Positions 13,834 through 41,107 of a DNA stretch of 64,000 nt are shown here, in pieces. The stretch spans positions 2,241 to 66,240 of the forward strand of contig JAZKXR010000007.1 in NCBI GenBank assembly GCA_045611705.1, given 5' to 3'. The translations under genes were made by a program, and so were the position numbers. The notes beneath the pieces were generated by a model that did no database searches, was not told the DNA's origin, and saw only the letters and a program-made list of their open reading frames with translations. The first letter of the stretch is position 1, and each line of letters starts with the position of its first letter. The stretch comes from Alphaproteobacteria bacterium. GTDB lineage: Bacteria; Pseudomonadota; Alphaproteobacteria; CAAHEQ01; UBA3637.

Positions 13834-13893
13834 AAAAATGCTTGTATTATAAAAAAAAACAGTGTATGTTTTTTGAAAAACAGGGAGATTGAT

Positions 13894-16234: not shown

Positions 16235-16244
16235 AGGAGTCCGT

Positions 16245-17603
16245 ATGGAAAAAGAAGAACAACCGGCGAATTTAATTGATCAATTGGAAACAACACGGGA
16301 TGAGGTTGTCAAACGTTCCTCAACCGGTGTTGTGACCGTTGATGGTCAAAAATATGCGGTTGGTTTGGTATGGCAACCGGTTCAAAATCTGGACGACCCG
16401 ATTGTTGAAATTCGTGAATCTGCCGACAGTGAAACAGGTGCTGATTTATACTGTTTACGTCCGGCGGCAACCCCGCAATACGGTATGGGGTACAGCGAAT
16501 TGGGGCATCGTGATGGTATGCCTTCGTTGGCGGCCGCTGTGGCATCTGTTTTAACCGAATACAGTTCTGTTTGTGCCGTTTTCCGTGTGGATGAAGGATG
16601 GTGGTTGATTGCCATTCGTAATGATTTGATTTTGGCCGAAGAAGATATTGTCTTTGCCACAGAGGTTGAAGCTCAACGTGCCTATGCCGCTATGATGGCG
16701 GTGCCGGATTGGGGGATTCGTATTGTCCCACCGGAATGGAACATAGAAGGTGTTCAACAGGAAGATTTAACAAAACTTGTTCATGGTACACGTAAGGTCC
16801 GTTTGCAATCCATCAATGCCCAAAGACGAACAAAGTTTTTATTGGCTATTGCTCTTTTCATTGTTTTGGGCTTGGCATATTTAATATGGATGTTGGTTCA
16901 GGTTTTAAGCGAGGTGTTTACAGAAGACCAGGATATCATCCGTCCGCCGCCAACGGGTACACAATTGGGGGTTCAGGCCCCACCGCCAACCGCCACGCAT
17001 AAGCCATGGGAAGTTTTGCCGGATATGAAGCAATTCTTTGACCGTTGCTGGAATGCCGCTTATCAGGTTCGGTCGGTTATTGTGCCGGGATGGACAATGG
17101 GTATTATTCAATGTACAAAAGGTGAAGTTTTAACATCATGGCAATTGGAAAATCCGAAATTGGGACGTTTGTCATGGATGCGTTATGGTGTCAATGAATA
17201 TCAATTGAGTCCGAATTTTAAAATTGAAATTAAATCTGACGGAACATCGGCCACCGGCATGGTGACCTTTGATACGAAACTGTCCACGGTTTCATCTGAA
17301 CCAAAAATGACACCGATAGAATTGGAAGAAGATATTCGTGAAATTCAACAGGCAACGGGTTTAAGTTTTCAATTTAATCGCCAAACACTGTTGGATCCGC
17401 CCAATCGGGCCGATGGAACACGTCCACCCAATCAAAAAACATACACATACTATTCTTTTGTGGTTTTATCACCATATGCACCAATGGAATGGTTGTCGTT
17501 TTTTGAAAAGTTTTCTGGTTTGGAAATAACAAAACTGGAATATACGCCGTCTGGCGATGCAACAAACAAATGGAAGTATGAGGGAAGAATCTATGCAAAA
17601 TAA
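16245..17603 (+). CDS. bitopic inner-membrane pilus assembly protein (PilO/TcpR-D-like)
   Basis: Single central TM (LLAIALFIVLGLAYLIWMLV); operon position between the secretin and the PilP-like gene. Confidence 0.35.
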   Translation: MEKEEQPANLIDQLETTRDEVVKRSSTGVVTVDGQKYAVGLVWQPVQNLDDPIVEIRESADSETGADLYCLRPAATPQYGMGYSELGHRDGMPSLAAAVASVLTEYSSVCAVFRVDEGWWLIAIRNDLILAEEDIVFATEVEAQRAYAAMMAVPDWGIRIVPPEWNIEGVQQEDLTKLVHGTRKVRLQSINAQRRTKFLLAIALFIVLGLAYLIWMLVQVLSEVFTEDQDIIRPPPTGTQLGVQAPPPTATHKPWEVLPDMKQFFDRCWNAAYQVRSVIVPGWTMGIIQCTKGEVLTSWQLENPKLGRLSWMRYGVNEYQLSPNFKIEIKSDGTSATGMVTFDTKLSTVSSEPKMTPIELEEDIREIQQATGLSFQFNRQTLLDPPNRADGTRPPNQKTYTYYSFVVLSPYAPMEWLSFFEKFSGLEITKLEYTPSGDATNKWKYEGRIYAK

Positions 17604-18507
17604 AACATTTTTAAAAACATTGTTCGTGATTTCTTTTTTAACTGTACCGGCTTGGGTAATGACGGTTGATGCATCTGTTCCATCGCAACCAGATGCTTCA
17701 AGATCATTAGGATTATCGGATATTGATTTAAGCAATAAAAAAACTGTTGATTTTTCTGCTCGTACATCAATGGATGAATTGGAATTAACAACCTTGCCCG
17801 GTGTCAATGAAACAAATATTACAGGGCCGGCGGCTTTTTCGGAATCTGTTGGCAGCAATGATTATCCCAGTGAACAATTATTGGGTCGTTTGAATCCGGA
17901 TGTTTTTGAAGAAATGGCTGCATTAGAAAGGGATAAAGCCTTTTTAACTTTGCAAGTTCAAAAGGCAGAATTGTCTAATAAATTGGAAGATTTACGTGCG
18001 ACATATCGTCAAAATCGGTTGGATGAAATCGCCAGACGTGAAGATGTGATTCGGACGCGTATTCAATGGTGGCAGGAACAGGAAAAATTGCGTTTAGAGG
18101 CCGAAAATCAACGTCAGGAAGCCGAAGAATTAAAAGCTCAGCGTCAAGAAGCCGAAGCCTTGAAAGAACAATTGGCCGAAGCACAACGTGCTGTTTTGGA
18201 AGCACAGGCACAGGCAGAAGCACAAGCTCGGGCACAACAACAGCAAGCTCAATTAGTGCCAGAGGCAGTGGTTATTGATGAAACAACAGATGCCGATTTG
18301 GAACCCATTGTTTCGCATCCGTCATATGTTTTGGTGGGTGTAAAGGGAACTCGCGGTAATTTACAGGCTCGTGTTAAAAACACATCTTCCGGAGAAATAT
18401 CAAACGTTCGTACGGGTGAAAATTTGTTTGGTGAGGTTGTAACGGCGGTTACACCAGACAGTGTTATTTTATTGCGTGATAATTCCGAATATGTGATTAC
18501 ATTTTAG
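17593..18507 (+). CDS. PilP-like pilus assembly protein (N-terminal anchor, coiled coil, C-terminal beta domain)
   Basis: N-terminal hydrophobic segment, long QA-rich coiled coil, C-terminal VLVGVKGTRGNLQARV...VILLRD resembling the PilP secretin-binding domain. Confidence 0.4.
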   Translation: MQNKTFLKTLFVISFLTVPAWVMTVDASVPSQPDASRSLGLSDIDLSNKKTVDFSARTSMDELELTTLPGVNETNITGPAAFSESVGSNDYPSEQLLGRLNPDVFEEMAALERDKAFLTLQVQKAELSNKLEDLRATYRQNRLDEIARREDVIRTRIQWWQEQEKLRLEAENQRQEAEELKAQRQEAEALKEQLAEAQRAVLEAQAQAEAQARAQQQQAQLVPEAVVIDETTDADLEPIVSHPSYVLVGVKGTRGNLQARVKNTSSGEISNVRTGENLFGEVVTAVTPDSVILLRDNSEYVITF

Positions 18508-18512
18508 TTTGA

Positions 18513-20480
18513 TTGGATTTTGAAATGGTGGAAGAAAATCAACAAATCGTTTCTGAAACTGTGTCAGCGGGTGGGGTTGAAAAATCCGGTGAGGTTTTTT
18601 CATCACCGATATTACCAACCCAGAGTATGCCTGTGGATGAAAACCAGGCGTCACCACAAATTCAATCGGATGAAACCCAATCATTTTCGGCGGCGGATGT
18701 TTTGGCCCCACAGCAAGATTTATCCGAAACTTTGGATACCTTAAAGGAATATTCCGAACAACCTCAAACACCTCAGCCGGCACAGGTGGTACCCGAAGAA
18801 ATTACTGCCCAAACAAAATTGACAGTAGAAGAAGATCCACATGCCGAAGAAGATGATAAAAAAGAACTTTATTCATATGATATTGATCCAAATGATCACA
18901 GTTCCGTTCGTTTTTTAAAGGATTTATATGATAATTCAAACGAATGTATGACATCTGAAACAGGTTCTTTTCCCGTAAATGAAGAAACACGTAAGTTGTT
19001 GGCTTTGTTTTCAAACGGTCGTTTTTTTGTGGTGGAAGAAAGCAAATATGACGGTCGTGTTTTGGGATTTGAATATTTGGCCAAAAAAAGACGTTTACAG
19101 ATATCTGATCCCGAATATGTGACGCCTTCGGAATTGTTGGCTATTTATACCTATGCCGATCAAATTCGTACAGCAACGGATACGATCAGTGCCGAAGAAG
19201 TTCAGCGTCAAACACGTATGCAACGGGACTTTGTAACAGTGATTTCCCGTGCCGCCATTAACCATGTATCTGATATTCACATTGTTGTGGCCGATCACAC
19301 AACGGTTTTATTTCGTGTAAACGGTTTAATGCAAACAGAAATGGAATATAACAAGGATTGGGGTGAAAGCTTTGTTCGTGCGGCCTTTGCCTCGGCGGAT
19401 GTTTCGGATTCCAACTATGCTCAAAATGAATATCAGGCGGCTCAAAAATTGGGGCGTACGCCTTTGCGTGGTTCGGGTGGACGATTGGTGTTGCCTAAAT
19501 CTGTTTTGGGTTTGCGTTTGCAATTTAACCCGATTGCCTTTGGTACCCGCTATGTGATTATCCGTTTATTGTATGCGGATGAAAATGCGGCCTCAGGCGA
19601 TCAAGCATTGGAAAGTTTGGGCTTTTCGGATTATGATATTGAAAAATTCAGATATTTGCGTTCATTGCCAACGGGAATTGTGGTCGTATCTGGACCGACT
19701 GGTTCGGGTAAATCCACAACATTGCAACGTAATATGATTTCTATGTTAAAGGAACGCAACTATGAAACCAACCTGATTACGGTGGAAGACCCGCCCGAAT
19801 ATCCGATTCCCGGTGCTCGTCAGATGCCGGTGACCAACGCGGGTGTTGAAGAAGCCAAAGACCGTGAATTTACAAAGGCTTTGTCGGCGGCTTTGCGTTC
19901 TGACCCTGATTCATTAATGATCGGTGAAATTCGTACGCTTGCGGCGGCCGATTTGGCCTTCCGTGGTGCTTTGTCAGGCCACAACGTATGGACAACTTTG
20001 CACGCCAATACGGCTTCGGCGGTTTTGTTGCGTTTAAAGGATATTGGTGTGGAAGATTTTAAATTACAGGATCCATCCATTATGCGTGGTATGTTGGCCC
20101 AACGTTTGTTCCGAAAAGTTTGTCCGTTTTGCCGAGTGGCAACCAAAACACAGTTAAATCATCCGGCCGTTCAACGTTTGCGTGAAGCCTATGGTGATAT
20201 CGGTTTGGAAAATACTTATTTGCGTGGGGCCGGTTGTGAAGAATGTGATTTTCGTGGCGTCAGTGGACGTTCGGCTGTGGCAGAATTTATTTTACCCGAT
20301 ACAACCTTTTTGGATTTGATGTTAAAGGGGGAAACGCAAAAAGCATTGAATTATTGGGTGACGGATTTACATGGTCGTACCTTGAAAGAAGGGGCCACAG
20401 AGCATATGTTTAAAGGTGAGTTTGATATTGAAGAAGTGGAACGTTGGTGCGGACAACTCAATCAACCGAACCTGATTTAA
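18513..20480 (+). CDS. GspE/PilB/TcpT-family secretion ATPase with a unique acidic N-terminal extension of about 230 aa
   Basis: Walker A GPTGSGKST, Asp box, His box, C-terminal tetracysteine (CPFC...CEEC). Confidence 0.85.
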   Translation: MDFEMVEENQQIVSETVSAGGVEKSGEVFSSPILPTQSMPVDENQASPQIQSDETQSFSAADVLAPQQDLSETLDTLKEYSEQPQTPQPAQVVPEEITAQTKLTVEEDPHAEEDDKKELYSYDIDPNDHSSVRFLKDLYDNSNECMTSETGSFPVNEETRKLLALFSNGRFFVVEESKYDGRVLGFEYLAKKRRLQISDPEYVTPSELLAIYTYADQIRTATDTISAEEVQRQTRMQRDFVTVISRAAINHVSDIHIVVADHTTVLFRVNGLMQTEMEYNKDWGESFVRAAFASADVSDSNYAQNEYQAAQKLGRTPLRGSGGRLVLPKSVLGLRLQFNPIAFGTRYVIIRLLYADENAASGDQALESLGFSDYDIEKFRYLRSLPTGIVVVSGPTGSGKSTTLQRNMISMLKERNYETNLITVEDPPEYPIPGARQMPVTNAGVEEAKDREFTKALSAALRSDPDSLMIGEIRTLAAADLAFRGALSGHNVWTTLHANTASAVLLRLKDIGVEDFKLQDPSIMRGMLAQRLFRKVCPFCRVATKTQLNHPAVQRLREAYGDIGLENTYLRGAGCEECDFRGVSGRSAVAEFILPDTTFLDLMLKGETQKALNYWVTDLHGRTLKEGATEHMFKGEFDIEEVERWCGQLNQPNLI

Positions 20481-20492
20481 GGATGGTGAAGC

Positions 20493-21614
20493 ATGCTGCA
20501 AAAAAAAGAAGAAATAAGATTAAAAGGCGGTGTTGTAGAAAACATCAACATGGCTTATGCTCAACTGATGGTGCGTTTACATGCCGAAGATCGCTTGGAA
20601 ATGTATCGTAAATTATCGGCTCTTTTGAAAAACCGATTTTCTTTGATGGATGCGTTGGAAAGATTGTATCAAATTGCATCAAAAGATGGTAAAAGTCCAT
20701 CGGATACGATGGCGATGGCGGTTGCCAACTGGATGACCAAAATCCGAAACGGTCAAACATTTTCTGAATCTTTACGTGGTTGGGCACCACAAAATGAATT
20801 GTTGCTGTTGTCTGTGGGTGATGTGGCGAATTTGGAATTAGCCCTGGAACACACAGTGCGTGTGGTGGAAGGTATGAACAAGATGCGTTCCTTGGTTTGG
20901 GGTGCAGTGGCATATCCTTTGTTTTTGTTGTGTATGGTGGCCTTGTTGATTTGGGGTGTGGCCAAATTCATGGTGCCACCGATGAAGGAAGCCGTGCCGA
21001 ATTTACAATGGAAAGGTGTGGCCAAAAGTTTGATTGATTTATCCAACTTTGTTGACCAACACCCGATATTATTGTTTGCCATTGTGCCGACAATCAGCAT
21101 ATGTGTAATGATTACATTTCCATATTGGAAAGGCTTGGGACGATCGACTTTTGATAAATTTCCGCCATGGTCCATTTATCGCGGTTTTGTTGGGGTCAGC
21201 TGGCTGTTGGCTCTGTCGGCTTTGGTGCGTGCAGGTATGCCGGTTTCCAAGGCTGTGCGTTCATTGATTGGTGATGATTCCAGCCCTTATTTAAAAAGCC
21301 GTTTAAACCGTGCTTTGATGTTTATCAGTAACGGTGATAACTTGGGTGAAGCGTTATATCATACCAAATATGGTTTCCCTGATGATGAAGTGATCGGCGA
21401 TTTGCGTATTTATGCGGAATTGGATACCTTTGCCGAAGCGTTGGAAAATTTGGCAAACGGTTGGTTGGAATCATCCGTTCGCACCATCGGGAAACAGGCG
21501 GAAATTTTAAACTCAATCGCTATTTTATCCATTGCCGGTGTTATCGGTTGGGTGGTTTGGGGAACCTTTGCCATGCAGGATCAAATGGTCAGCGGTATGG
21601 GCTTGGGCGGTTAG
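20493..21614 (+). CDS. GspF/PilC/TcpE-family polytopic platform protein
   Basis: Two GspF-like repeats with TM segments; 373 aa; RBS AAGGATGG. Confidence 0.7.
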   Translation: MLQKKEEIRLKGGVVENINMAYAQLMVRLHAEDRLEMYRKLSALLKNRFSLMDALERLYQIASKDGKSPSDTMAMAVANWMTKIRNGQTFSESLRGWAPQNELLLLSVGDVANLELALEHTVRVVEGMNKMRSLVWGAVAYPLFLLCMVALLIWGVAKFMVPPMKEAVPNLQWKGVAKSLIDLSNFVDQHPILLFAIVPTISICVMITFPYWKGLGRSTFDKFPPWSIYRGFVGVSWLLALSALVRAGMPVSKAVRSLIGDDSSPYLKSRLNRALMFISNGDNLGEALYHTKYGFPDDEVIGDLRIYAELDTFAEALENLANGWLESSVRTIGKQAEILNSIAILSIAGVIGWVVWGTFAMQDQMVSGMGLGG

Positions 21615-21790
21615 GCCGGTTTGGCATTGCCGATATTTAAGGCACAAACATCCAAAACGTTTTTGATTTTTGAAACAACTTTATCGTCTTTGTTGTTGGG
21701 GGTAATGGCGGTTAAAACGCTGGCCCCCGTCACAATAGATGTTAAAGCGGTGATAAAGTCATAAAAATGATTGATGATAAAGTTTAACAT
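21611..21790 (-). CDS. 59-aa small membrane protein (holin/antiholin-like candidate)
   Basis: MLNFIINHFYDFITALTSIVTGASVLTAITP...; its stop overlaps the pilR-like stop by 4 nt. Below the 60-aa cutoff of the ORF track. Confidence 0.3.
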   Translation of the reverse strand: MLNFIINHFYDFITALTSIVTGASVLTAITPNNKDDKVVSKIKNVLDVCALNIGNAKPA

Positions 21791-21799
21791 TTAATTCTC

Positions 21800-22081
21800 C
21801 TATTTTAAAATAAGGTTTAACAAAGCCATAATCAGGGCAGTGCCTGTTGTGGCCACGATAATGGTAATTAAATTTTTAATTGGCGTAATTTCATTTTTCA
21901 AAACAAACTCTTGTTTTAAATTGGCATACAGTGTGTCAACCTGTTGTTTTATTTCACCAAGTTGTTGTTGCAACAATGAAACAGACGCCATTAATTTGCC
22001 GATTTCTATGGATAAGCTGGGGGCGGGCATATCAGACTCCTTAAACATCTTTATAAAATAAATGATTGCCGATTTGGGCAC
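21800..22081 (-). CDS. small coiled-coil protein with C-terminal TM (holin/spanin-like candidate)
   Basis: C-terminal hydrophobic ITIIVATTGTALIMALLNLIL; immediately downstream of the lysin. Confidence 0.3.
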   Translation of the reverse strand: MPKSAIIYFIKMFKESDMPAPSLSIEIGKLMASVSLLQQQLGEIKQQVDTLYANLKQEFVLKNEITPIKNLITIIVATTGTALIMALLNLILK

Positions 22082-22445
22082 ATGGGATTAAATGTCTGGC
22101 CCACAGGGGATGACATTCAAAAGCATGATAATGTGTGGCCCCGTTTGTGTTATCCGTCAATACACCGGCCAAAGCTCTTTTAACAATTCTTTGGCAAATT
22201 TGATAAACGGGATTTTCGGATAAATCGCTTGTTAAAATTTTGTAATTGACATCATTGTGATTCCAACATGAAAATTGTTTGGGCTTTAAACATACTTCGC
22301 GGATGTTTTTGCCCCACCACATCGGATGGATCAGATTCATTTTGACACGATTTAAAATAACATTGGCAATGGCTTCTTGACCGGCCAAGGATTCGCCACG
22401 GGCTTCACCGTAAATTGTTTTGGCAAAGATTTCTTCTTCTGTCAT
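22041..22445 (-). CDS. SleB/CwlJ-family cell-wall hydrolase (phage lysin)
   Basis: TIYGEARGES...ANVILNR motif of the Hydrolase_2 family. Confidence 0.75.
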   Translation of the reverse strand: MTEEEIFAKTIYGEARGESLAGQEAIANVILNRVKMNLIHPMWWGKNIREVCLKPKQFSCWNHNDVNYKILTSDLSENPVYQICQRIVKRALAGVLTDNTNGATHYHAFECHPLWARHLIPCAQIGNHLFYKDV

Positions 22446-22457
22446 TTATTATTCTCC

Positions 22458-23849
22458 TTATCGCCACAATGGGCGTTGTTTATAAAAAAGCGGTAATGTT
22501 TTCAAACGAACAGGTTCACTCAATAAACATCCCGCCACGGCATCCAAACCGTCATCATGGGTATTGCCTGATGTGTTAAAGTCTTGCATTTCGCGAATAA
22601 AAGGTGTTTTTAAAACACTTTCGTGGGCATATAGGTTACCGTTTAAAAGCGGTGGTTCTATGGCCCCTAAAATGCGTTCGGTTTTGTTTTGTCGGGCTGT
22701 TTCTTCCAATACGGCCACAGCCATACGTTGGCGGGATAATTCCTGACGTAGCAAGGCCGGTAAAAATCGCCCGATACCGTTTGTTTCCAAATGAATGGCC
22801 GGCAACATTAAATCTTTTAAAAACTGAACAACCTTTTGACATTGATAAGAGGTGGCTTCTTCATTTTCAGGAACAGTTAGATATAATAATTGATGAATAT
22901 AATAAAAACCATTTGCATCCGAAAAAACACCCGCCACGACACTTTTATCGCCACCGACTTTACCAAAGGCTGGATCCCACCAGGCACATCCCGAAACTAA
23001 TTGATGTTCGTTTAATTTTAAGACAGCCTGACCATTGGCTTCGGTGTAATCCAAATCATCCGAATAAATTTTTAATTTTCTTTCATCCAAGCGTTGTTTA
23101 TCAAAGGCGACCGCCTCTAACATCATTTGGCTTAAAAATTTAAAACGAGGAGTTGTTCTTTTAATTTGATTTATTTTATCCACAGAAAATCGTTCGGGCC
23201 AAGTGGCCAAGCCTGATGCATCCATAATCGGTAATTTTAAAAGCTTCCAATTTGGTTGATTGTAAATACTTTGGCGTGTATGGGGTGTGCCGATATACAA
23301 AATCAATCCATCGGGTGATAGGATATAATCCAATTCGGCCAGTTTTTGTTTTAAATCTTCACGTTTGCCGGCTGTATCACATGTTTTGGGTACTTCCACA
23401 TCATCACATAAAATGATATCAGCCCGACACCCTGTGATGTTGGCGCTTAAGCCACGTGCCAAAACGGACGGATCACGACCACCGGCAGGACGTTGAACGG
23501 TCAGTTTATCACCGGCCCATTCTTCGGCCTTTTCTGGTTTTAATCCTTGACACAGAGGATGGCGTTCCAAAATATGTTTGATATGACGCACCATTTTTTG
23601 TGCCAAGGCGTGATCGGCCGATAAGACCAATAATCTTAAATTGGGATTTTGCGTTAAAACCCACGCACAAAACAAACCGACAATGGTTGATTTTCCTGAA
23701 TTTCGAAAGGCCATTAAAACGGCCTGTCTGCGTCCTTGTGAAAAATAAAGTTCGGATAAAAAACGACCCATTATCTTATGGTGATTTGGTATGGATAAAT
23801 TTTGTATTTTATCCCAAATCCATACGAATTCCAGAAATGTCGTTTTCAT
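22458..23849 (-). CDS. phage terminase large subunit
   Basis: Walker A MAFRNSGKST near the N-terminus; C-terminal nuclease-like region with acidic residues; position after the structural genes. Confidence 0.75.
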   Translation of the reverse strand: MKTTFLEFVWIWDKIQNLSIPNHHKIMGRFLSELYFSQGRRQAVLMAFRNSGKSTIVGLFCAWVLTQNPNLRLLVLSADHALAQKMVRHIKHILERHPLCQGLKPEKAEEWAGDKLTVQRPAGGRDPSVLARGLSANITGCRADIILCDDVEVPKTCDTAGKREDLKQKLAELDYILSPDGLILYIGTPHTRQSIYNQPNWKLLKLPIMDASGLATWPERFSVDKINQIKRTTPRFKFLSQMMLEAVAFDKQRLDERKLKIYSDDLDYTEANGQAVLKLNEHQLVSGCAWWDPAFGKVGGDKSVVAGVFSDANGFYYIHQLLYLTVPENEEATSYQCQKVVQFLKDLMLPAIHLETNGIGRFLPALLRQELSRQRMAVAVLEETARQNKTERILGAIEPPLLNGNLYAHESVLKTPFIREMQDFNTSGNTHDDGLDAVAGCLLSEPVRLKTLPLFYKQRPLWR

Positions 23850-24099
23850 CTTTTAAATCCTCTTTGGCCTGATGAATTAAATCCAATAAATCGGTTTGAA
23901 TGGTCGGTTGTTTTTTTGGGGCTATATCCAAAATTTTAATCAACAAAGCAATGTGCAATAATGCTGATTTACATGCACTGTGATAGGCATTAAAATCTTT
24001 GGCATTCATGGGGCAATCGGCATTGGCAAAGGATTGATATGTTTGAACGGCTTTTTCCAAAAAAGGTTTCATTTTTTTCAGATAGGCCTTCATACGCAC
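23809..24099 (-). CDS. small phage protein (possible small terminase subunit)
   Basis: 96 aa, immediately 5' of and overlapping the large terminase, as with T7 gp18. Confidence 0.25.
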   Translation of the reverse strand: MRMKAYLKKMKPFLEKAVQTYQSFANADCPMNAKDFNAYHSACKSALLHIALLIKILDIAPKKQPTIQTDLLDLIHQAKEDLKDENDISGIRMDLG

Positions 24100-24576
24100 C
24101 TACTTAATCATTGTTCGGCTGATACCGCTGGCTAAATCACCCAAAGTGCCATACATATTATTTTGGCTGGCCTGATTGATGCTGTTTAATTTTAACAGAT
24201 TTGTCCCAGTGCTGTGATTCAAACTGTTTAACAGGGCATCTGATGATATTTTGGCCTGGTTAACCAAGTATTTATCCTCCATATCATATTCCCTTTGCAT
24301 AGCGTTTAAATAAGTTTGCCCTGTTCCGGATTGACCGGATAATCCCGATGCTCCTAGTTTAGCTTTATAGCTGGCCTGTTGTTGTGCCAACAGATTTTTA
24401 TTTTTTCGTTGTCTTTCGTTTAAAGCCAAACGTGCCTGTTTGTCCTGTAAAGCGGCCTGTTCGGCGGCATAGGCATTGGATCGTTTGATGGCTTTTTTTT
24501 GACGATCGGCATTGGCTTTTGTATAATAGGCCGACCCCAAGATTGAAACGACTGTGGCAATGACTGCTGCTTCCAT
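24100..24576 (-). CDS. small virion/internal protein-like (N-terminal TM, Q/A-rich)
   Basis: N-terminal hydrophobic helix; lies between the gp12-like and terminase genes, where T7 has gp13 to gp16. Confidence 0.3.
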   Translation of the reverse strand: MEAAVIATVVSILGSAYYTKANADRQKKAIKRSNAYAAEQAALQDKQARLALNERQRKNKNLLAQQQASYKAKLGASGLSGQSGTGQTYLNAMQREYDMEDKYLVNQAKISSDALLNSLNHSTGTNLLKLNSINQASQNNMYGTLGDLASGISRTMIK

Positions 24577-24577
24577 A

Positions 24578-26503
24578 TTATCCTCCTATTTTAATATCAC
24601 TGATAACCGAAACCAATTGAAAAGGCAGAGGTTGGTTGCCTTGAATAATCCACAACGGTTCGGTTGGATTTCTTTTCCATCCCAATCCCCGCACAATAAT
24701 GTCTGATGTTTTGGTGATGGGGGCACTGTCCAAAATGTAATTATTCAGGCTTTCATTTATTTCCTGATGCAATCCGCAACCGGTATCAATTTCAAAACTT
24801 TTTGTGTTGATTAAACGGAATACGCCTCTGACAAATCGACATGATGCCACGGGTGCAGAACCATTACTGGCGCCGGCTGCGATGGGCAGTGGGACAATTT
24901 TGTGTGCAAAAGACAATCCGTATTGTAATCTTTGTGCATTGACATTTAACCGAACCGTTCCGTTTGAAATATCTTGATTTTCCTGAACACGTCCATCGGC
25001 CAATAATTGCACATTCCATCCGTTTAAATAATCTAAACCGTCCCAATCCATTTGAGGCGTTTGGCTTGTTTGATTTTGGGCCAAATCCATATACAATTCA
25101 TCATCCATTTTTTCCAAATAAAATTTATCTTTTCTTTGTGTGATGAAATAAGTGTATTTTCCCGAAATAGTGACACTTAAAAATTTACCTTGCGTTTTAT
25201 GGCGTGTCCAACTTTGGATATCTTCACTGCGAAAACTGGTTAAAGAACTCATGGAACCATCCTGCATGATGATATAGGCCTGACGTTGATATTTATCATA
25301 GGCCATATCCACCGGATGATTGATGACATGGTGGGCCAGTAAAGATAAATCGGTGGCCTGGTAGATACCTTCTAAATCCGAAAATAAAAATTCACGGATT
25401 TCTTTGCCGTTGGCACTGGCAAAAATAGTGGCACCGTCAATGCCCACCGGTGGAACATAATTTTCATCGGGTGATCCCACCTGAGTTTGACGATGCAGTT
25501 GAATGGATTCAGGGGTTAAAGGATTGCCCGATACCATCCATTCGGCACCGGTTGTAAAAACCTGTAAGTGCCGACCAGAAAACAAGGCGGTGATTTTATT
25601 TGCCTGATTGGACATCAACGAAAAACAGATGGCTTCGTTATCCAGAGCCGTTCCTTCTTCAAAGTTACCCAAGTCATTACTTTGGCTGAACCATAACGTA
25701 TTGGGTAAACTTTTGGAGCCGCCAAAAACCAATCGGGATTGATAAGTGGTAACCGTTGACGGCCAACCGCGTTCATCACTCCATGCGACTTCGCCCCAAT
25801 ATCTTGTGGCTTCTAATTTTGTTTCTTGTGTGCTGTCTTCATCATCCAACAGTTTTTTTAAAACGGTTGCATTGGCATGTTGGTTATCAGTGACGGCTGT
25901 GATTTTGACATAGCCGGCACCTAATTTGAAAACTTGATTCAAATGTTTGCTTTCAAACAAAGGTGCATCGGCCGTTAAAGTAACCGAATCCAAACATCCG
26001 CTGGATGAAATGGATATGTTTTTATCATTAAAGCGGTGATAGGGGATATGCATATATCCGTTTTGGTTTAAAAATTCAAAGCTTTTTATTTGCCATTGAC
26101 CGTTATCCAATTTGATATGTTGCGGGGTAAAATCGGGATGCACGATAATCACGCCATCCGATAAACATGCCCAACGAATTTGGCGAATATCTTCATCATC
26201 CCAAGGTGTTGTGAGGGTGCTAATCAAAATATCGTTTTGAAAAATCTTTGTTTGATTATTTTGTATAACCAATAAATAAGTATGCGAACTATCTTGCTCA
26301 TAACTGATTAAACGTCCTTTTGTTTGTAATTCAAAAATGTATTTTAATCCGGGTCGGCGATGAACACCGCCGGTGGGTTCAATAAAAACATTTTCCAAAA
26401 TTTGTGCACCATTATGATAGCTGGTTAAATCCACCCGTCCCAACAAATCGGGCGACAATTCACCGGCCGTAAAATTTGTTTTGGCGGTAAATATATTTGT
26501 CAT
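24578..26503 (-). CDS. tail tubular protein B-like (T7 gp12 position)
   Basis: 641 aa; start overlaps the gp11-like stop (ATGA); T7 synteny position. Confidence 0.45.
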   Translation of the reverse strand: MTNIFTAKTNFTAGELSPDLLGRVDLTSYHNGAQILENVFIEPTGGVHRRPGLKYIFELQTKGRLISYEQDSSHTYLLVIQNNQTKIFQNDILISTLTTPWDDEDIRQIRWACLSDGVIIVHPDFTPQHIKLDNGQWQIKSFEFLNQNGYMHIPYHRFNDKNISISSSGCLDSVTLTADAPLFESKHLNQVFKLGAGYVKITAVTDNQHANATVLKKLLDDEDSTQETKLEATRYWGEVAWSDERGWPSTVTTYQSRLVFGGSKSLPNTLWFSQSNDLGNFEEGTALDNEAICFSLMSNQANKITALFSGRHLQVFTTGAEWMVSGNPLTPESIQLHRQTQVGSPDENYVPPVGIDGATIFASANGKEIREFLFSDLEGIYQATDLSLLAHHVINHPVDMAYDKYQRQAYIIMQDGSMSSLTSFRSEDIQSWTRHKTQGKFLSVTISGKYTYFITQRKDKFYLEKMDDELYMDLAQNQTSQTPQMDWDGLDYLNGWNVQLLADGRVQENQDISNGTVRLNVNAQRLQYGLSFAHKIVPLPIAAGASNGSAPVASCRFVRGVFRLINTKSFEIDTGCGLHQEINESLNNYILDSAPITKTSDIIVRGLGWKRNPTEPLWIIQGNQPLPFQLVSVISDIKIGG

Positions 26504-27072
26504 GTGCGTACCTCAATCAAAGAAAAATCCTGAAAACAGGGGTTTGTGGATTGTTGCGAATCCACCAATCTGGCCTGTTTTAATTCTTCGGCGGCAATTT
26601 TACGCATATAATCCGTGCGTGTTGTGCTTTCGGTTAAAGGCAGACAAAATTCGCTGGCCAATTGGGTGATAAAGGCCTTTACAAAAAAAGGCGGAAAAGT
26701 GCTTTCATCGGGTTTTTCAATATAATTTAAAATGACTTCCGATGTATTGGCGTACAGGCATTTGCCCACGATTTTATATTGCAATCCCGAACTTTTGATA
26801 TTTTGTCCGGCCGATAAAATACGCAAACAATTATTTGGTAATTGAAAGGCGTATTGATAATCCGAAACAGGTTTATTTTCCAATCGGGCCAAACTTTTTT
26901 GTTTTAATGCAAAACGCCACGGATAGGATGCCAATAAGTTTTCCAAGGTCGGTTGATACAATTGGGATGCCACGGTGGCTTCACAGGATGTTTCATCAAA
27001 AGAAGAAATACTGTTGGCCCCCAATTCCACCAAAGCACGAGAGCATAAATCAATGTTTGTGTATGACATATT
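26500..27072 (-). CDS. tail tubular protein A (T7 gp11-like gatekeeper)
   Basis: N-terminal pattern LCSRALVELGANSISSFDETS...ASYPWRFA parallels T7 gp11 (NDILASIGEPPVSTLE...QSRGWTF). Start taken at MSYTNIDL. Confidence 0.6.
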   Translation of the reverse strand, partial: NMSYTNIDLCSRALVELGANSISSFDETSCEATVASQLYQPTLENLLASYPWRFALKQKSLARLENKPVSDYQYAFQLPNNCLRILSAGQNIKSSGLQYKIVGKCLYANTSEVILNYIEKPDESTFPPFFVKAFITQLASEFCLPLTESTTRTDYMRKIAAEELKQARLVDSQQSTNPCFQDFSLIEVRT

Positions 27073-27138
27073 GTTCCTTTTGTATGAAAAAATCCCCCTT
27101 GGGATAAAACCAAAGGGGGACAAATGGTAAAGATTTTT

Positions 27139-27996
27139 TTAGACGGCCTTATCCAAGCAAACCATTTTGACAACACCGTTGTCGTCAATCAGGCTGGCTC
27201 CTTGGCTCATCATGTTGTTCACATAATGGGCGGCATAATCGCCATGCCATGTAATATCGGTGGTGATGTCCTGACCGGCGGCCAAACCGACGGCTGATTT
27301 GTGATAGATAAAACAGCTTGTACAGGCTGAATCACCGGCACCTTCTGTGGGCAATCCAGTGTGCATAATCCAATTGATTCCCATCCATTTGCGTGTTTCG
27401 GAACCCGTCAACAACGGATGTGCATCACCCACATAGTTGGCATTTGAAAATTCGTCCAAGCTCAACAATTGATTCCATTGGGCCGGTCCCACCAAAGCAT
27501 AGCGTTCACCGTCATCGGGAACATTGGCAGTGTTGAGTTTTTGAAAGGCCTGCAAAATACGTTCTTTGGTCAAACCTGTTGATCCATCACCGGCAACTTG
27601 TGTGGCATTTTCTAAAACGGAAATAATCAATTCATCTGTTTTACGTCCCAAAGCATAGGCACCGGCTGTGGCCAAAACTTTACGTTCGTCATGGCCGACT
27701 TTTAATTCATCCAATTTGTCAATCCATTGGCCGGCATACCAATCGGACAAAGTGCATTCCACCGGTGCATGTGTAACAGCGGCGGGTGTCAATTGGGCAT
27801 TTCGGGATGATTTTTGGTTGGCTGTTTGGGTGCCGATAACCTGAAAGGTTGTGCTGGAACCTGTAATACCGCCTTTGAAACGAACGGTGTTGCGTAATTT
27901 TGATCCTTGTTGTTGATAGGCTGTGTGGACATCGGCTTCAAAATGTTTTACAAATGAAGCGTCAATTGTGTTTGAAGTTGTCATTATTTTCTCCAT
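27139..27996 (-). CDS. major capsid protein (T7 gp10-like)
   Basis: ASFVKHFEADVHTAYQQQGSKLRNTVRFKGGI...TFQVIG parallels T7 gp10 (LFLKVFGGEVLTAFARTS...FPVLG); C-terminal HKSAVG also matches. Confidence 0.7.
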   Translation of the reverse strand: MEKIMTTSNTIDASFVKHFEADVHTAYQQQGSKLRNTVRFKGGITGSSTTFQVIGTQTANQKSSRNAQLTPAAVTHAPVECTLSDWYAGQWIDKLDELKVGHDERKVLATAGAYALGRKTDELIISVLENATQVAGDGSTGLTKERILQAFQKLNTANVPDDGERYALVGPAQWNQLLSLDEFSNANYVGDAHPLLTGSETRKWMGINWIMHTGLPTEGAGDSACTSCFIYHKSAVGLAAGQDITTDITWHGDYAAHYVNNMMSQGASLIDDNGVVKMVCLDKAV

Positions 27997-28106
27997 ATAG
28001 TTTTAAGTTAAAAAATCCTTATCAAAGGTTGTGAAGAAAATCTTCGCCTTCATTCGGGCTGGTTAAGGTGCGGGGCACTGGGCTTATCCGCGAAACAAAA
28101 AAAGCT

Positions 28107-28793
28107 TTAACCGTATAAACGTTTAAAGCCTTTTTCAATACGGCCGACTAATTCGGGATCTTGATCTTTCCAATATTTTGGATCTTGCATTAATCGGCGT
28201 AAAGTTTTTTCATCATCCATAGGGTTGAGACGACTTTTACCTTTGATAATGGGTGATTCCTGTTTTTCCTGCATCATGCGGTAAAGGGTTAAAACACCGT
28301 CTTTTGTGGATGATAAAATTTCAAAAGTTTTTTGATCTAAATTTTTTTCACCCCATGCAGATAATTCACGGGCGACATTGTTAAAATGTTCGGCACCGCC
28401 AAATTCGTCCTCCAAGGCTTTTAATTCTTTATCACATCCGACTTGACGGGCAAAGTTTTCCAATTGGGGCAAAATAAAATCGGCCGCGATATCATAAACC
28501 CCTTGGACCTGTTCGTTTGTTAATCCCAATTCAAACAATCGTTTGTTAATGATTAAATCGGATACCAATAATGGGTCTTTTGGGGCAATTTTATAATCTT
28601 CGGCTTTATTTGGGATGGTACCGTTTTGTGTTTGTTTGGGGGCACTCATCTTTTTTTCCAAAGCCAAATAAGATTTTAACAATTCATCGGTATTTAATTT
28701 TCCTTCTTTGTTTAAAAATTTTTCGGGGATAGTGGGTGTTTCGTTGATTTGTTCACTCATAAATAATTCCTTTTGTTTAAGGTTGTTTTCCAT
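28107..28793 (-). CDS. scaffolding protein-like (acidic, helical)
   Basis: Position between the portal and capsid genes; charged helical composition. Confidence 0.45.
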   Translation of the reverse strand: MENNLKQKELFMSEQINETPTIPEKFLNKEGKLNTDELLKSYLALEKKMSAPKQTQNGTIPNKAEDYKIAPKDPLLVSDLIINKRLFELGLTNEQVQGVYDIAADFILPQLENFARQVGCDKELKALEDEFGGAEHFNNVARELSAWGEKNLDQKTFEILSSTKDGVLTLYRMMQEKQESPIIKGKSRLNPMDDEKTLRRLMQDPKYWKDQDPELVGRIEKGFKRLYG

Positions 28794-28974
28794 TTTGAAT
28801 TAAACGTTCCATTGTGGCAATCAGGGCACGTTGCCCTTCTAAATACCACAATTCCTGATTGGTGGCCTGTGGGGATAAAATACGGCCAGATATTTTTTGA
28901 CGCAAATAATTTAAAACGGTTTTGCCGTCAGTTGTTTGGGCCAATCTGGTAAAGGCGTGGGCAATACGAATCAT
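28777..28974 (-). CDS. hypothetical small phage protein
   Basis: 65-aa ORF overlapping both neighbours. Confidence 0.2.
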   Translation of the reverse strand: MIRIAHAFTRLAQTTDGKTVLNYLRQKISGRILSPQATNQELWYLEGQRALIATMERLIQNGKQP

Positions 28975-30437
28975 GGTGTACTTTCACTTGGTTGTAATTG
29001 AATAAAGTTAGCAGGCAATCCCATTTTTTCAGTCAGCCATTTCAACACTTCATTTTTGTTCATTTTGGCCAAAACATCATTACCCAGTCCGGCCACGGCG
29101 GATATCCATGTCAGTGCATTTTGTGCTTCTTTTTTGGATTGCATTTCGGCCCGTGGGGATTTATAGGTGATGTTTAATAACTGCCCGTCCAAAAAGATTT
29201 CGGGGATTTCGCCACGTTTGCGTAAAATACCGACAGCCCGTTCAATTAAAGGTGTTAATAATTCGGATTGCAAACGTCCATAGGTGGCACCCAAAATACG
29301 AATCATTTCTTCACTTCGTTCCAAAACTTCGGTGGCGGTCATTTTTGTTTCATCACAAACCGTCCCCAATTTATCGCCCAACATAGCATGACGGATGCGT
29401 TCACGTAAATCCTTGATAACCAATTGGGATACATCAAACTTGCCAGGGGCTTCCAAAGGTGTTAAACCTTTGGATCCGACGGCTTTTGGAATAATTGCAC
29501 CGGGGGTCAGATTGATGGTGGCGGGGTTGAGCACACCATCATCTTCGGCTAACCAGATACCTGTCACGGCAATCGTGGCGTTTTTCAAAATCAATTCCAC
29601 GACTTTGTTGGCTGTTTTAATATCGGGTAAAGCTTTCATGACAGGAGAACGCCCGTAAATTTCCCCCGGTGCTTTCAGCCAGCGGAAAGCGATAAACGGC
29701 GAAGTGGTGTAATGCGTTTCGCTCAGGAGGAAAGGTGACTCCTGATTATCGCCTGAGAATGACTGGCAATTGGGATCTGAAAAGCAAGTATAAGTATAAC
29801 CGCCTTTGGGGCAGGGGATTAAAGCTTCTATTACACGCAAAGGTGATTTATCATCCTTATCCCGTTTGGGTAATTTGTTGGTGCCGAATTTGGCAATAAA
29901 GGATTCTTCATCCATGGCAAAGCTTCTGAAAACTTTATCCAATTTACCGTTATTACCTTCGGCTAAACAGATTTCGTTTAGCGGAACGGCTGTAAATTTA
30001 AAGGCCGATGCTGAACCGATATCGCTTTGTTCAAATAATAAACAGGCTGTACCAACCGTAATTAAATCCAAATAACATTGATGGATTTCTGTTGAAAAGT
30101 TGGATCTGTCCAAATGCGATTGCAATGTGGCGGAAATTTTTTCCAAAGTCGGTGCGATTTGAATTTTTTCACCTGAGGATAATTCATCACCGGCATTTAA
30201 TTGAAACCATTGCACCCAAGGTGGCGTCAGCTCGCTCAACATTAAAGCGGCCAACTGATCTGTTGCATCCAAAGCGGTGGCATCATACAAATTGGCAATT
30301 TTGTTTGCGCTGGGTAAAAAGGTTGTTTGTCGTGTTGGTAGGGCATAGGCATAGCATTCTTGCCAAACCGATTCCCAATCAGACCGTTGTTGCACGGCCT
30401 GTTGATACATTTGATACAGTTTTTTGATATCGGACAT
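28971..30437 (-). CDS. portal (head-to-tail connector, T7 gp8-like)
   Basis: C-terminal region KMTATEVLERSEEMIRILGATYGRLQSELLTPLIERAVGIL parallels T7 gp8 (RVTAEEIRYVASELEDTLGGVYSILSQELQLPLVRVLLKQL). Start at MSDIKK with AAGGAG RBS. Confidence 0.7.
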   Translation of the reverse strand: MSDIKKLYQMYQQAVQQRSDWESVWQECYAYALPTRQTTFLPSANKIANLYDATALDATDQLAALMLSELTPPWVQWFQLNAGDELSSGEKIQIAPTLEKISATLQSHLDRSNFSTEIHQCYLDLITVGTACLLFEQSDIGSASAFKFTAVPLNEICLAEGNNGKLDKVFRSFAMDEESFIAKFGTNKLPKRDKDDKSPLRVIEALIPCPKGGYTYTCFSDPNCQSFSGDNQESPFLLSETHYTTSPFIAFRWLKAPGEIYGRSPVMKALPDIKTANKVVELILKNATIAVTGIWLAEDDGVLNPATINLTPGAIIPKAVGSKGLTPLEAPGKFDVSQLVIKDLRERIRHAMLGDKLGTVCDETKMTATEVLERSEEMIRILGATYGRLQSELLTPLIERAVGILRKRGEIPEIFLDGQLLNITYKSPRAEMQSKKEAQNALTWISAVAGLGNDVLAKMNKNEVLKWLTEKMGLPANFIQLQPSESTP

Positions 30438-30555
30438 TTTTTCTCCTTTGGGTTGATTGCAACTAAAAATAGAAAAAAGGACCTTTCGTAAAACGAAAAG
30501 TCCCTTTGGATACACTTCTATCTTTTAATTGATTTGCATTATATCATAAATTTTT

Positions 30556-30963
30556 TCATTTGTCAAGGAAAATTTTCCTTTTTTCTTTTTTTAAGGTTAA
30601 ATACAGTTGATAGGGTGTCCAAATTTTTGGATTTGTCAGTCCCAAAAAACGTTTGACTGTTTCCACACAGGTCGTGGGTCTGAGGTGAAAGGAAATTTTT
30701 TCGGGTACATTCAAAGTCGTGCGTATTAAACGGTATCCTTTGTTTTTTAAAATTTGGGGAGCATGTCGTTGATGCATTAAAATTAAATCGGTATAATGCA
30801 TCACCGGATCAATTAAAATCCATTCAAAGCCATTGCCGATTAAAAGAGCACAATGATAAAAGCCTTTTTTTAAAAAACGGGTCCACCAATGTGTGGGATT
30901 GCCACCAAAGGCCACATAAGCAAAAGGAAAACGATAAGCGTTTACGGATGGTATGTAAATCAT
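30556..30963 (-). CDS. hypothetical phage early protein
   Basis: ORF between the repressor-proximal region and the portal gene. Confidence 0.3.
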   Translation of the reverse strand: MIYIPSVNAYRFPFAYVAFGGNPTHWWTRFLKKGFYHCALLIGNGFEWILIDPVMHYTDLILMHQRHAPQILKNKGYRLIRTTLNVPEKISFHLRPTTCVETVKRFLGLTNPKIWTPYQLYLTLKKEKRKIFLDK

Positions 30964-30978
30964 GTCAAACTCCTTTAT

Positions 30979-31338
30979 TTATGTGGCATAAACAATTCCT
31001 TTTTGTTTTAATAAATTGCCCAAAAATTTTAATCCTTCATACCACAGACGACAAATTTTTGGTGCATCACCGAAATGTTCGTGTGGTGGAACTTGGGCAA
31101 AGCCGTATTTGGCCAAAACTTTCAAATGTTCGGCTTTTAAGGTGCCGTTTTGCATCAATCTTTTAACGGCAATGGCGATATCGGCCGATTCGCACGGGCG
31201 TGCAATTTTGGATTCTCCTCCATGGCTTCTTTCGTGTTTTAAATTTTCGCATAAACAGTACCAAAACCACGCCTCTTCACTGGAAGAAAAAGGTGTTGTT
31301 TGTCTGTTATCAACGGATGATAGATATTTATTCTTCAT
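30979..31338 (-). CDS. hypothetical phage early protein (Cys/His-containing)
   Basis: First gene transcribed divergently from the repressor; start taken at MKNKYLSS. Confidence 0.3.
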   Translation of the reverse strand: MKNKYLSSVDNRQTTPFSSSEEAWFWYCLCENLKHERSHGGESKIARPCESADIAIAVKRLMQNGTLKAEHLKVLAKYGFAQVPPHEHFGDAPKICRLWYEGLKFLGNLLKQKGIVYAT

Positions 31339-31429
31339 ATTTTTTTCTCCTCGGTTTATAAAAAAGAACAAAACGAGAACTAACATATTTTTTTATGAAT
31401 GTCAAGAGGAAAATAAGAAAAAAATCCTA

Positions 31430-31458
31430 TTGACAAATGCATGGAAATATGTTAAGGT
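31430..31458 (+). promoter_or_regulatory. candidate sigma70 promoter for the repressor gene (TTGACA-17-TAAGGT) in the divergent control region
   Basis: -35 TTGACA at 31430-31435, 17-nt spacer, weak -10; about 30 nt upstream of the repressor ATG. Confidence 0.3.
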
Positions 31459-31488
31459 GGTTTACAACTAAAAAGAGAAAGGAAAAAG

Positions 31489-32124
31489 ATGCAGCTTTCG
31501 TATAATGAAATTTGGCTGGGTTTGGAAAATCTGGCACAAAACAAAGGAATGTCCTTATCGGCGTTGGCACAAAAGGCTGGTTTGGATCCTACTAGTTTTA
31601 ATAAATCTAAGCGAATTGGGGCAGATGGGCGTAAACGTTGGCCGTCCACCGAAAGTATGAATAAAGTTTTAAAGGCTACCAACACCACGGTTTTTGAATT
31701 TATGGAATTGGCGGGGCAGCCTTGTCCAATGCCAAAAAATATGATTCCTTTGTTGGGATTGGCTAAAGCGGGACGGGAAGGTTACTTTGATTCGGACGGT
31801 TGGCCGATTTTGACAGACGATTGGGATGCTGTTGAATTTCCCTTAACGATTGATAAGCGGGTTTATGCTTTGGAGGTTTCGGGTAATAGTATGGAGCCTG
31901 TCTATCGTGAAGGTGATAAATTGATTGTAGCACCTGATTCGGAAATCCGTCGTGGCGATCGTGTAATTGCCAAAACAACATCAGGTGAAGTGATGGTTAA
32001 AGAGTTTATTCGTCGTTCCATGAATCAGGTTGAATTAAAATCATTAAATCCGGATTGTGATGATGTATTGATAAAACCGGCTGATATTAAATGGATTGCA
32101 CGCGTTATTTGGGTTAGCCAATAG
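31489..32124 (+). CDS. CI/LexA-like S24 peptidase transcriptional repressor (HTH plus autocleaving C-terminal domain)
   Basis: N-terminal XRE-type HTH (GMSLSALAQKAGL), C-terminal EVSGNSMEP...K motifs of S24. Confidence 0.8.
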   Translation: MQLSYNEIWLGLENLAQNKGMSLSALAQKAGLDPTSFNKSKRIGADGRKRWPSTESMNKVLKATNTTVFEFMELAGQPCPMPKNMIPLLGLAKAGREGYFDSDGWPILTDDWDAVEFPLTIDKRVYALEVSGNSMEPVYREGDKLIVAPDSEIRRGDRVIAKTTSGEVMVKEFIRRSMNQVELKSLNPDCDDVLIKPADIKWIARVIWVSQ

Positions 32125-39036: not shown

Positions 39037-39039
39037 GCC

Positions 39040-39399: not shown

Positions 39400-39483
39400 A
39401 TCGTACGAAAAAATAAACCAGCCCCTGATTTGGGGCTGTTTTTTTCATCAAATCTAAAACCACAGGCATAAGCCGATGTTGTT

Positions 39484-40065: not shown

Positions 40066-40151
40066 ATTTTGTCATGACAGAGTAAATAAAAATATTATGC
40101 TTGTCAAGTATAATATTTTATGATAGATTGTTTTGAAAAAAAGGAGATGGC

Positions 40152-41102: not shown

Positions 41103-41107
41103 TTATA

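Follow-up and report, generated by a model that had tools for sequence, protein, structure and literature searches.

A conserved T7-type podovirus cassette as a candidate gene transfer agent of gut Alphaproteobacteria

A DNA stretch of 64,000 nt from an Alphaproteobacteria bacterium (GenBank assembly GCA_045611705.1, contig JAZKXR010000007.1, positions 2,241 to 66,240 of the forward strand), hereafter referred to as the window, contains a complete T7-type morphogenesis, packaging, and lysis module at 21611-32124. This module, hereafter the cassette, lies beside a divergently oriented gene encoding an S24 (CI/LexA-like) repressor, as assessed by open reading frame (ORF) listing and profile searches. 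We lean, on balance, toward the reading that the cassette is an SOS-induced, antitermination-controlled domesticated podovirus that is functionally similar to a gene transfer agent (GTA). Binding by the regulators, antitermination, the packaged DNA, the size of the capsid, and transfer itself are the parts of this reading that we infer.

Gene content, conservation, and descent of the cassette

All structural and lysis genes lie on the reverse strand (21611-31386), and regulation, virion, packaging, and lysis functions are all found within ~10.5 kb, an unusually compact arrangement (Table 1). The genes for the portal (gp8 in T7), scaffold (gp9), capsid (gp10), adaptor (gp11), and nozzle (gp12) follow each other in a T7-like order, with the terminase gene (gp19) downstream. 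The resemblance of portal, capsid, and gp11 to their T7 counterparts, as well as the gene order, had been proposed by the original prediction and is confirmed by profile and PDB sequence matches. Indeed, portal, capsid, adaptor, and nozzle match those of the T7-like phage LME-1 (9EFK and 9EG4) and entries 8CK0/8CK1, and the portal also matches the T7 portal 6R21. A gp14-like internal protein, with a match below the cut-off, may be retained as well. The small-terminase candidate orf96 matches phrog_31793, a family of unknown function (E 1.8e-12), and the true start of orf93 is probably an internal Met, as in the 76-aa form seen in two related loci (L005 and L009).

Profile searches identified no RNA polymerase, DNA polymerase/primase, gp15/gp16, or PF03906 fiber gene in the cassette or elsewhere in the window, and no ORF of gp15/gp16 size lies between the nozzle and terminase genes. 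The window contains neither the single-subunit RNA polymerase nor the replication module of an Autographivirales-type genome. There is no integrase gene in the cassette, and the single tyrosine recombinase of the window (5549-6496) is of the XerC/D type, 15 kb away and next to priA. The search for fiber-like genes was negative for the cassette, the window, and the DNA within 10 kb in every canonical locus. The absence of replication, RNA polymerase, ejectosome, fiber, and integrase genes, originally noted for the cassette, therefore extends to the whole window, and its flanks contain neither the missing phage functions nor pseudogene remnants beside the cassette.

A capsid-based scan of species-representative genomes yielded 43 loci, nearly all in metagenome-assembled genomes (MAGs) of uncultured Alphaproteobacteria from human gut, rumen, abomasum, and omasum. 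The closest genomes being gut and rumen MAGs, the earlier suggestion of a reduced, intracellular-type genome is not supported; the host is a gut or rumen commensal represented by a MAG. As assessed by tblastn and ORF clustering, the same gene order is found in ~35 species-level MAGs, with capsid identities ranging from 99% down to ~60%. The shared order is the divergent repressor gene followed by orf135b, orf135a, portal, (orf65), scaffold, capsid, gp11, gp12, gp14-like, orf96, large terminase (terL), lysin, holin, and orf59. Pairwise Nei-Gojobori ratios of nonsynonymous to synonymous substitution (dN/dS) are 0.03-0.2 for nearly every cassette gene, equal to those of flanking host genes, with the highest values (0.08-0.5) found for orf96. 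In 36 terminase sequences, the Walker A, Walker B, and nuclease Asp residues are 94-100% conserved; the terminase gene is frameshifted in one of ~35 copies (L026). Over 66 pairs, the identity of cassette proteins follows that of flanking type II secretion system (T2SS)-E/F proteins (r = 0.77) and that of Lnt (r = 0.91).

Together, conservation, dN/dS, and these identity correlations exclude an ordinary decaying prophage and argue for vertical descent from one old domestication. A decaying remnant would account for the short length of the cassette, the many missing phage functions, and the frameshifted terminase in L026. This explanation is effectively refuted by the finding that ~35 species, with capsids as little as ~60% identical, maintain an intact cassette of unchanged gene order under purifying selection, and by the conservation of its regulatory DNA. 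The proposal that this is a domesticated cassette has thus held up, including in its expectation that related genomes would share the same reduced gene set in synteny. Like GTAs, which are viriforms in the sense of Kogay et al. 2022 (PMC9662315), the cassette is a phage-like structural cluster within a cellular genome that has no replication or integration genes and evolves with that genome.

The cassette is always flanked by host housekeeping genes, which vary by clade: pilus genes and corA in the clade of the window and lnt beside the repressor gene in a second clade. In a third clade, lnt, an XRE regulator gene, and mnmG border the lysis end, and the flanks of further clades contain ATP synthase genes. 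In these loci, the lnt, ATP synthase, and mnmG genes were identified by reading the printed sequences. In the window, lnt is confirmed by Pfam and lies 19 kb from the repressor gene, and linkage to lnt recurs across clades. The stop codon of orf59 overlaps that of the convergent host T2SS-F gene, leaving zero intergenic space. At the borders of the ~35 loci, we found no integrase, tRNA, or replication gene in any case, and a search for direct and inverted repeats returned only short, chance-level matches as candidate att sites or terminal repeats. The 25-nt repeat D2 corresponds to T-rich leader sequence. A T2SS-F-based metagenome scan for empty sites retrieved a single close relative, in which the cassette is present; the other hits are ~60% identical and not adjacent to a cassette and, as other clades place the cassette elsewhere, are uninformative on empty sites.

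One pair of species departs from the pattern of co-divergence. Between the window and locus L001, the sole large outlier among the 66 pairs, a 10-kb tract that spans the cassette (~21530 to 31400-32000) is 91-98% identical, whereas the flanks are 68-85% identical. The left crossover falls within the 3'-terminal 85 nt of host T2SS-F and the right crossover in or near the repressor gene, and both lie in the most conserved sequences available. Since the left crossover is inside T2SS-F, the donor must have had the same context and have contributed chromosomal DNA. This tract, which we count as evidence of transfer in favor of the GTA-like reading, shows homologous allelic replacement of the whole cassette between species and says nothing about the vehicle.

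The same tract, which fits the cassette to ~100 bp on its left side, can also be cited for a helper-dependent satellite or mobilizable defective prophage. Such an element would make its own heads and tail hub, preferentially package itself, and obtain fibers, core proteins, and replication from a co-infecting T7-like phage. The missing fiber and gp15/gp16 genes, the retained small-terminase candidate, and the listing of cassette fragments as viral in IMG/VR point in the same direction. We nevertheless regard this explanation as quite unlikely. The ~35 genomes have no integrase, att repeats, tRNA target, or replication module at the cassette borders, the cassette co-diverges with host genes, it abuts a host gene with no intergenic space, and the left crossover is in host DNA. 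In addition, the nearest cultured phages have only ~32% portal identity and none contains the cassette, and the IMG/VR contigs bring no additional phage genes. A megablast search of the cassette against phage genomes returned no match. Capsid-forming phage-inducible chromosomal islands (cfPICIs) and other satellites are likewise small elements (10-15 kb) with their own capsid, portal, and terminase, but they differ in having an integrase, att sites, and a replication module, none of which is present in the cassette. Satellites also rely on the tails of a helper, whereas the cassette has adaptor and nozzle genes of its own.

Regulatory DNA and early genes

The original prediction placed the cassette under a CI-like repressor. 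An S24 repressor is indeed present, but control would also involve a LexA box, a promoter-terminator leader, and a candidate Q21/AlpA-like protein. The intergenic region between the repressor gene and orf135b is conserved across clades and contains divergent near-consensus promoters. The motif over the early -10 element is the LexA-box consensus of Alphaproteobacteria (PMC3091678); exact matches occupy an equivalent position in over 30 loci, with ~1.5 matches expected by chance per 64 kb. The palindrome between the divergent -35 elements, imperfect in the window, is perfect (AAATAGG...CCTATTT) in L029 and L030. In the repressor, Ala94-Gly95, Ser134, and Lys171 are 97% conserved. That the adjacent repressor might be LexA itself was considered and rejected, because the TIGR00498 score is 39.6 bits (cut-off 110.95) and the S24 domain alone aligns. 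The LexA-box consensus at the early promoter suggests that production may be under host control, but the cassette also has its own repressor. In L019, a GC-rich and highly repetitive insertion of 1.7 kb (~4900-6560; CCGCACACC- and CACCACCG-like units), together with a small ORF, separates the repressor gene from the early promoter, and the downstream operator/promoter block is intact.

Two genes make up the early operon. By structure comparison, the best fold matches of orf135b are Q21 and then AlpA, with modest scores and no sequence similarity to AlpA. A Foldseek search of orf135b against BFVD gave nothing significant, and profile searches with orf135a and orf135b gave no matches among PDB sequences. 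Judging from its model, orf135b is a candidate Q21/AlpA-like antiterminator. The model of orf135a (predicted local distance difference test score, pLDDT, 85) matches NlpC/P60 and YiiX-type cysteine hydrolases, and its His36 and Cys98 are invariant.

Downstream of the early genes, all 35 loci compared contain a late promoter followed by leader boxes and a terminator, the stem of which varies in sequence between lineages. The mean folding free energy (dG) of the hairpin is -14.2 kcal/mol, and all 35 loci reach dG <= -8, as opposed to 1.7% of shuffles. This leader has the layout of lambda PR'-tR' and of the antitermination control recently described for BrrG and GafZ in BaGTA of Bartonella and CcGTA of Caulobacter, respectively. 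The capsid operons of these two agents are gated by a terminator and a dedicated antiterminator (Q21-like in the case of BrrG). A single copy of the composite late promoter/leader motif is present in each locus, as in the 64-kb window, and a search for a second locus with this motif was negative for the window and the other loci.

This single occurrence bears on the possibility that the cassette is the core operon of a multi-locus element, whose fiber, receptor-binding protein, and perhaps core proteins are encoded elsewhere under the same antiterminator, which would make the whole a full GTA or else a dispersed phage that remains infectious. There are precedents: a second operon with fiber, receptor-binding protein, and lysis genes lies 125 kb away in FpGTA of Faecalibacterium prausnitzii, and both RcGTA and CcGTA possess accessory loci. 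Among the distant relatives, L035 and L036 encode a short protein with the T7 fiber N-terminal domain PF03906 (27.5 bits), and the virion genes of L036 are interspersed with host genes. We consider a multi-locus element possible but doubtful, in view of the single late motif and the lack of fiber-like genes near the canonical loci.

The regulatory genes also invite comparison with two circuits of Pseudomonas aeruginosa, AlpR/AlpA and PrtR/PrtN, in which the gene for an S24 autocleaving repressor likewise lies beside that for a small positive regulator and the output includes lysis. In the first circuit, AlpR is the S24 repressor, AlpA is a processive antiterminator, and AlpBCDE are the lysis genes. 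There are differences, since AlpA acts on a lysis operon only and PrtN on tailocins, whereas the cassette would yield a full head, tail, and packaging set. The cassette could be kept for purposes other than gene transfer, i.e. SOS-triggered lysis (releasing DNA, vesicles, or public goods), killing by PBSX-like particles, or interference with related podoviruses. The combination of an S24 repressor, an AlpA-like regulator, and lysis genes mirrors the AlpR/AlpA lysis circuit, and DNA delivery is doubtful for a particle whose fiber and ejectosome genes were not found. This alternative is rather unlikely in our view, because constraint on the portal, capsid, scaffold, and terminase genes equals that on host genes and the terminase motifs are intact in nearly all copies. 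Such constraint is hard to explain unless DNA packaging is selected, and lysis alone would take ~0.8 kb of the 10.5 kb.

Table 1. Features of the cassette and its regulatory region (window coordinates)
Feature	Coordinates	Strand	Evidence and remarks
orf59, small single-transmembrane (TM) protein, holin-like	21611..21790	-	hydrophobic segment read directly; position kept across loci
orf93, holin or spanin-like	21800..22081	-	coiled coil and C-terminal TM segment; weak phrog_473 match
Endolysin, SleB-type cell wall hydrolase	22041..22445	-	PF07486 E 1.3e-21; phrog_938
Large terminase, ATPase and T7-type RNaseH-like nuclease	22458..23849	-	phrog_38 E 1.6e-77; PF22530 weak
orf96 (96 aa), small-terminase candidate	23809..24099	-	position (like T7 gp18) and size only
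gp14-like internal or ejection protein (158 aa)	24100..24576	-	N-terminal hydrophobic helix; PF24072 24.3 bits (cut-off 27); phrog_418 weak
Tail nozzle, T7 gp12 type	24578..26503	-	PF25675; phrog_376 E 7e-126; PDB 8CK1 nozzle E 3e-58; LME-1 orf18 E 1e-34
Tail adaptor, T7 gp11 type	26500..27069	-	phrog_394 E 3.6e-52; PDB 8CK1_E, 9EFK_T; 189-aa form as in other loci
Major capsid protein (MCP)	27139..27996	-	PF19821 E 1.1e-70; LME-1 MCP 9EG4 E 2e-29
Scaffolding protein, T7 gp9 type	28107..28793	-	PF05396 E 7.5e-07
orf65 (65 aa), Bbp19-like small phage protein	28777..28974	-	PF25181 31.7 bits (cut-off 25)
Portal, T7 gp8 type	28971..30437	-	PF12236 E 3.6e-122; ATG at 30437 after AGGAG site
Intrinsic terminator	30473..30503	-	11-bp stem and T6; late leader, ~60 nt ahead of portal start
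Leader boxes CA(A/G)TTA and AGAAsTGTATC	30508..30531	-	conserved; candidate antiterminator loading site
Late promoter TTGACA-N17(TG)-TATAAT	30538..30566	-	12/12 consensus, extended -10; overlaps orf135a end
orf135a, second early gene	30556..30963	-	permuted papain-like (NlpC/P60, YiiX-like) cysteine hydrolase candidate
orf135b, first early gene (119 aa from Met16)	30979..31341	-	candidate Q21/AlpA-like processive antiterminator
LexA-box consensus GTTC-N7-GTTC	31366..31380	-	exact match; over early -10
Early promoter TTGACA-N17-TAGTTC	31377..31405	-	TG upstream; read from sequence
Imperfect palindrome AATAAGA-N6-TCCTATT	31412..31431		between divergent -35 elements; candidate S24 repressor operator
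Repressor promoter TTGACA-N17-TAAGGT	31430..31458	+	read from sequence
Helix-turn-helix and S24 autocleaving repressor (CI/AlpR/PrtR-like, not LexA)	31489..32124	+	PF00717 E 2.4e-23; cassette-linked in every locus

Proposed function and comparison with known systems

Our favored reading can be laid out as a sequence of events. The cassette would derive from a T7-like temperate podovirus of the LME-1/pelagiphage type, as a remnant fixed in the chromosome and passed on vertically, in which selection would maintain a self-contained unit producing DNA-filled, short-tailed particles and lysing the producer. In uninduced cells, host LexA bound to the GTTC-N7-GTTC box and the S24 repressor bound to the AATAGG palindrome would keep the early promoter off. 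Upon DNA damage, activated RecA would promote autocleavage of LexA and of the repressor, a step proposed for the latter because the Ala-Gly, Ser, and Lys residues are conserved. The early operon would then be expressed, giving orf135b and orf135a, the putative antiterminator and papain-like hydrolase. The near-consensus late promoter is probably constitutive, and its transcripts would end at the terminator ~60 nt downstream unless orf135b loaded onto RNA polymerase at the leader boxes and allowed terminator read-through. Read-through would lead to production of portal, scaffold, capsid, adaptor, nozzle, the gp14-like protein, the small-terminase candidate, large terminase, lysin, and holins.

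The terminase would have to fill procapsids with chromosomal DNA in situ, as the cassette encodes no functions for excision or replication. Portal, capsid, scaffold, and both terminase domains are under strong constraint, which points to DNA packaging as the selected activity. The lysis genes, part of the same operon, would release the particles, which, with chromosomal packaging, would make the element functionally a GTA. After lysis, the particles would carry DNA to related cells, where homologous recombination would follow. Entry into the cytoplasm may require functions of the recipient, as for RcGTA, because the periplasm-spanning gp15/gp16 are absent and there is at most a gp14-like outer-membrane component. 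RcGTA delivery relies on recipient uptake functions.

Several points weigh against this reading. The closest solved homolog of the capsid, the LME-1 MCP (289 aa), builds a T=7 head of 60 nm for a 30-kb genome, and by analogy the head capacity may exceed the 10.5-kb locus, unlike in classical GTAs. Packaging could be site-specific if orf96 acts as a small terminase, and as encoded the particle may be unable to adsorb for lack of a receptor-binding fiber, unless a second locus exists. SOS control through an S24 repressor is a prophage pattern, as opposed to the CtrA/quorum-sensing pattern of RcGTA-type agents. Finally, the hosts are known here from metagenome assemblies only, and random packaging and transfer are putative. 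A further variant would be a phage without a replicon, an element fixed in the chromosome, the terminase of which starts packaging in or near the cassette, so that particles favor the cassette and its neighbors. It would spread between species by homologous replacement of resident copies only, and, with a gp14-like protein but no gp15/gp16, delivery would halt at the periplasm and need recipient uptake. We give this variant little credence.

Our preferred reading, a domesticated podovirus acting much like a GTA, can be compared with several known systems. GTAs have arisen several times independently. That no podovirus-based GTA had been described, as originally stated, is outdated; the first podovirus-like GTA-like element, FpGTA, was reported in 2026 (PMC12946183). 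Like the cassette, FpGTA comes from a gut commensal and has an operon of ~10.5 kb with terminase, portal, scaffold, and capsid genes; it is conserved genus-wide, has a podovirus-like short tail, and is linked to lysis. In contrast, it belongs to Bacillota, and its operon starts with the terminase genes (PMC12946183). Its fiber, receptor-binding protein, and lysis genes are in a second operon, whereas the cassette has its lysis genes in cis. FpGTA particles have been demonstrated by experiment, measuring 40 nm and containing ~8.5-9 kb of random DNA, whereas those of the cassette are putative. The cassette combines the T7-type order of portal, scaffold, capsid, adaptor, nozzle and, further downstream, terminase with an SOS/antitermination switch, a comparison made with the published description of FpGTA.

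LME-1 (a Legionella phage) and other temperate or marine T7-like podoviruses, such as Carin-1 and HTVC010P-type pelagiphages, share with the cassette homologous portal, capsid, adaptor, and nozzle genes, a T7-like gene order, and chromosomal residence. These phages are infectious, with genomes of 30-40 kb that encode fibers, internal virion proteins, and the remaining two-thirds of the genome, whereas the cassette has about one-third of that content, without fiber, gp15/gp16, integrase, or replication genes. BaGTA and CcGTA are also domesticated phage clusters of Alphaproteobacteria that co-evolve with their hosts, but their gene sets and orders are unrelated to those of the cassette. BaGTA starts with terL and portal genes (PMC3610622), and its regulator is encoded in a separate locus of other phage origin; CcGTA is RcGTA-like, with a long tail. 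Going by published gene lists, neither has a T7-type adaptor or nozzle. Identity with Bartonella BaGTA, to which the GC content had pointed, was rejected, as the nearest genomes are gut MAGs and the BaGTA gene order differs (PMC3610622). A search of the literature library for a T7-type or RF32 GTA, or for a GTA in these gut Alphaproteobacteria, found none.

Neighboring genes, divergent relatives, and significance

The remainder of the window is host DNA, with priA, the XerC/D-type recombinase gene, ligA, corA, an exonuclease III-family gene, a virB4-like gene, rpmI, rplT, a YifB/ComM-family ATPase gene, trkH, lnt, and leuS, among others. A type IVb-pilus-like or thin-pilus-like cluster (12429-21614) abuts the lysis end of the cassette in the clade of the window only; its members include a TrbC/VirB2-type pilin, a secretin, a PilO accessory protein, a T2SS-E ATPase, and a T2SS-F platform protein. 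The gene for a lone VirB4/TrbE-like ATPase (36232-38667) lies beside rpmI-rplT, a position kept in L001, L002, and L009, with no other type IV secretion genes nearby. The YifB/ComM-family Mg-chelatase-like ATPase is encoded at 47761-49269 (TIGR00368, 552 bits). ComM-type proteins are required for RcGTA DNA uptake in Rhodobacter; a part for this gene in the uptake of particle DNA would be speculative. Three stretches of the window have a low GC content (1-2000, 7000-10000, and 39000-42000; 0.32-0.35, compared with ~0.41), along with ORFs without a Pfam match (339-1646, 6493-6891, and 41149-41532).

Several relatives depart from the layout of the window. In L028-L033 and L051, which represent one clade and the fecal fragment MT838907, the terminator and the portal gene are separated by an extra ORF of 64-96 aa with ...RKxLLGE at its end, absent from the window. 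MT838907 is a 5-kb fecal fragment labeled "Bacteriophage sp.", with a portal identity of 51%. In L043 (Skermanella), a distant high-GC relative, the lysin gene is followed by that for a GTA_holin_3TM (PF11351) protein (18002-18676), and a 704-aa protein of unknown family is encoded between nozzle and terminase.

In more distant gut Alphaproteobacteria (L035-L037, which include Candidatus Enterousia, and L042), the T7-like genes are kept but rearranged. In L036 and L042, host genes (ftsZ, murC, and one for a DEAD-box helicase) lie between them, which fits an old domestication. The capsid, adaptor, and nozzle genes of L042 (6646-19711) are scattered among murC, a histidine kinase gene, and the DEAD-box helicase gene. 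In L036 (14809-20519), the terminase is split into an N-terminal ATPase gene (~205 aa) and a C-terminal nuclease gene (~293 aa), which are parted by ftsZ and the portal gene. This split is conserved in three species (L035, L036, and L037).

Taken together, these findings give good support to a domesticated, regulated cassette which, as judged from its genes, is a candidate transfer agent. If functional, it would mean that a T7-type podovirus has been domesticated independently to yield a GTA-like agent, the first one from uncultured Alphaproteobacteria living in the guts of humans and ruminants. Its control logic can be read throughout, from the SOS box through the S24 repressor and the small putative antiterminator to the terminator-gated late operon. 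The cassette would thus offer a tractable minimal system for studying phage domestication, antitermination as a general mode of GTA control, and T7-like delivery without gp15/gp16 and fibers. It may also constitute a route of gene flow in gut and rumen microbiomes.

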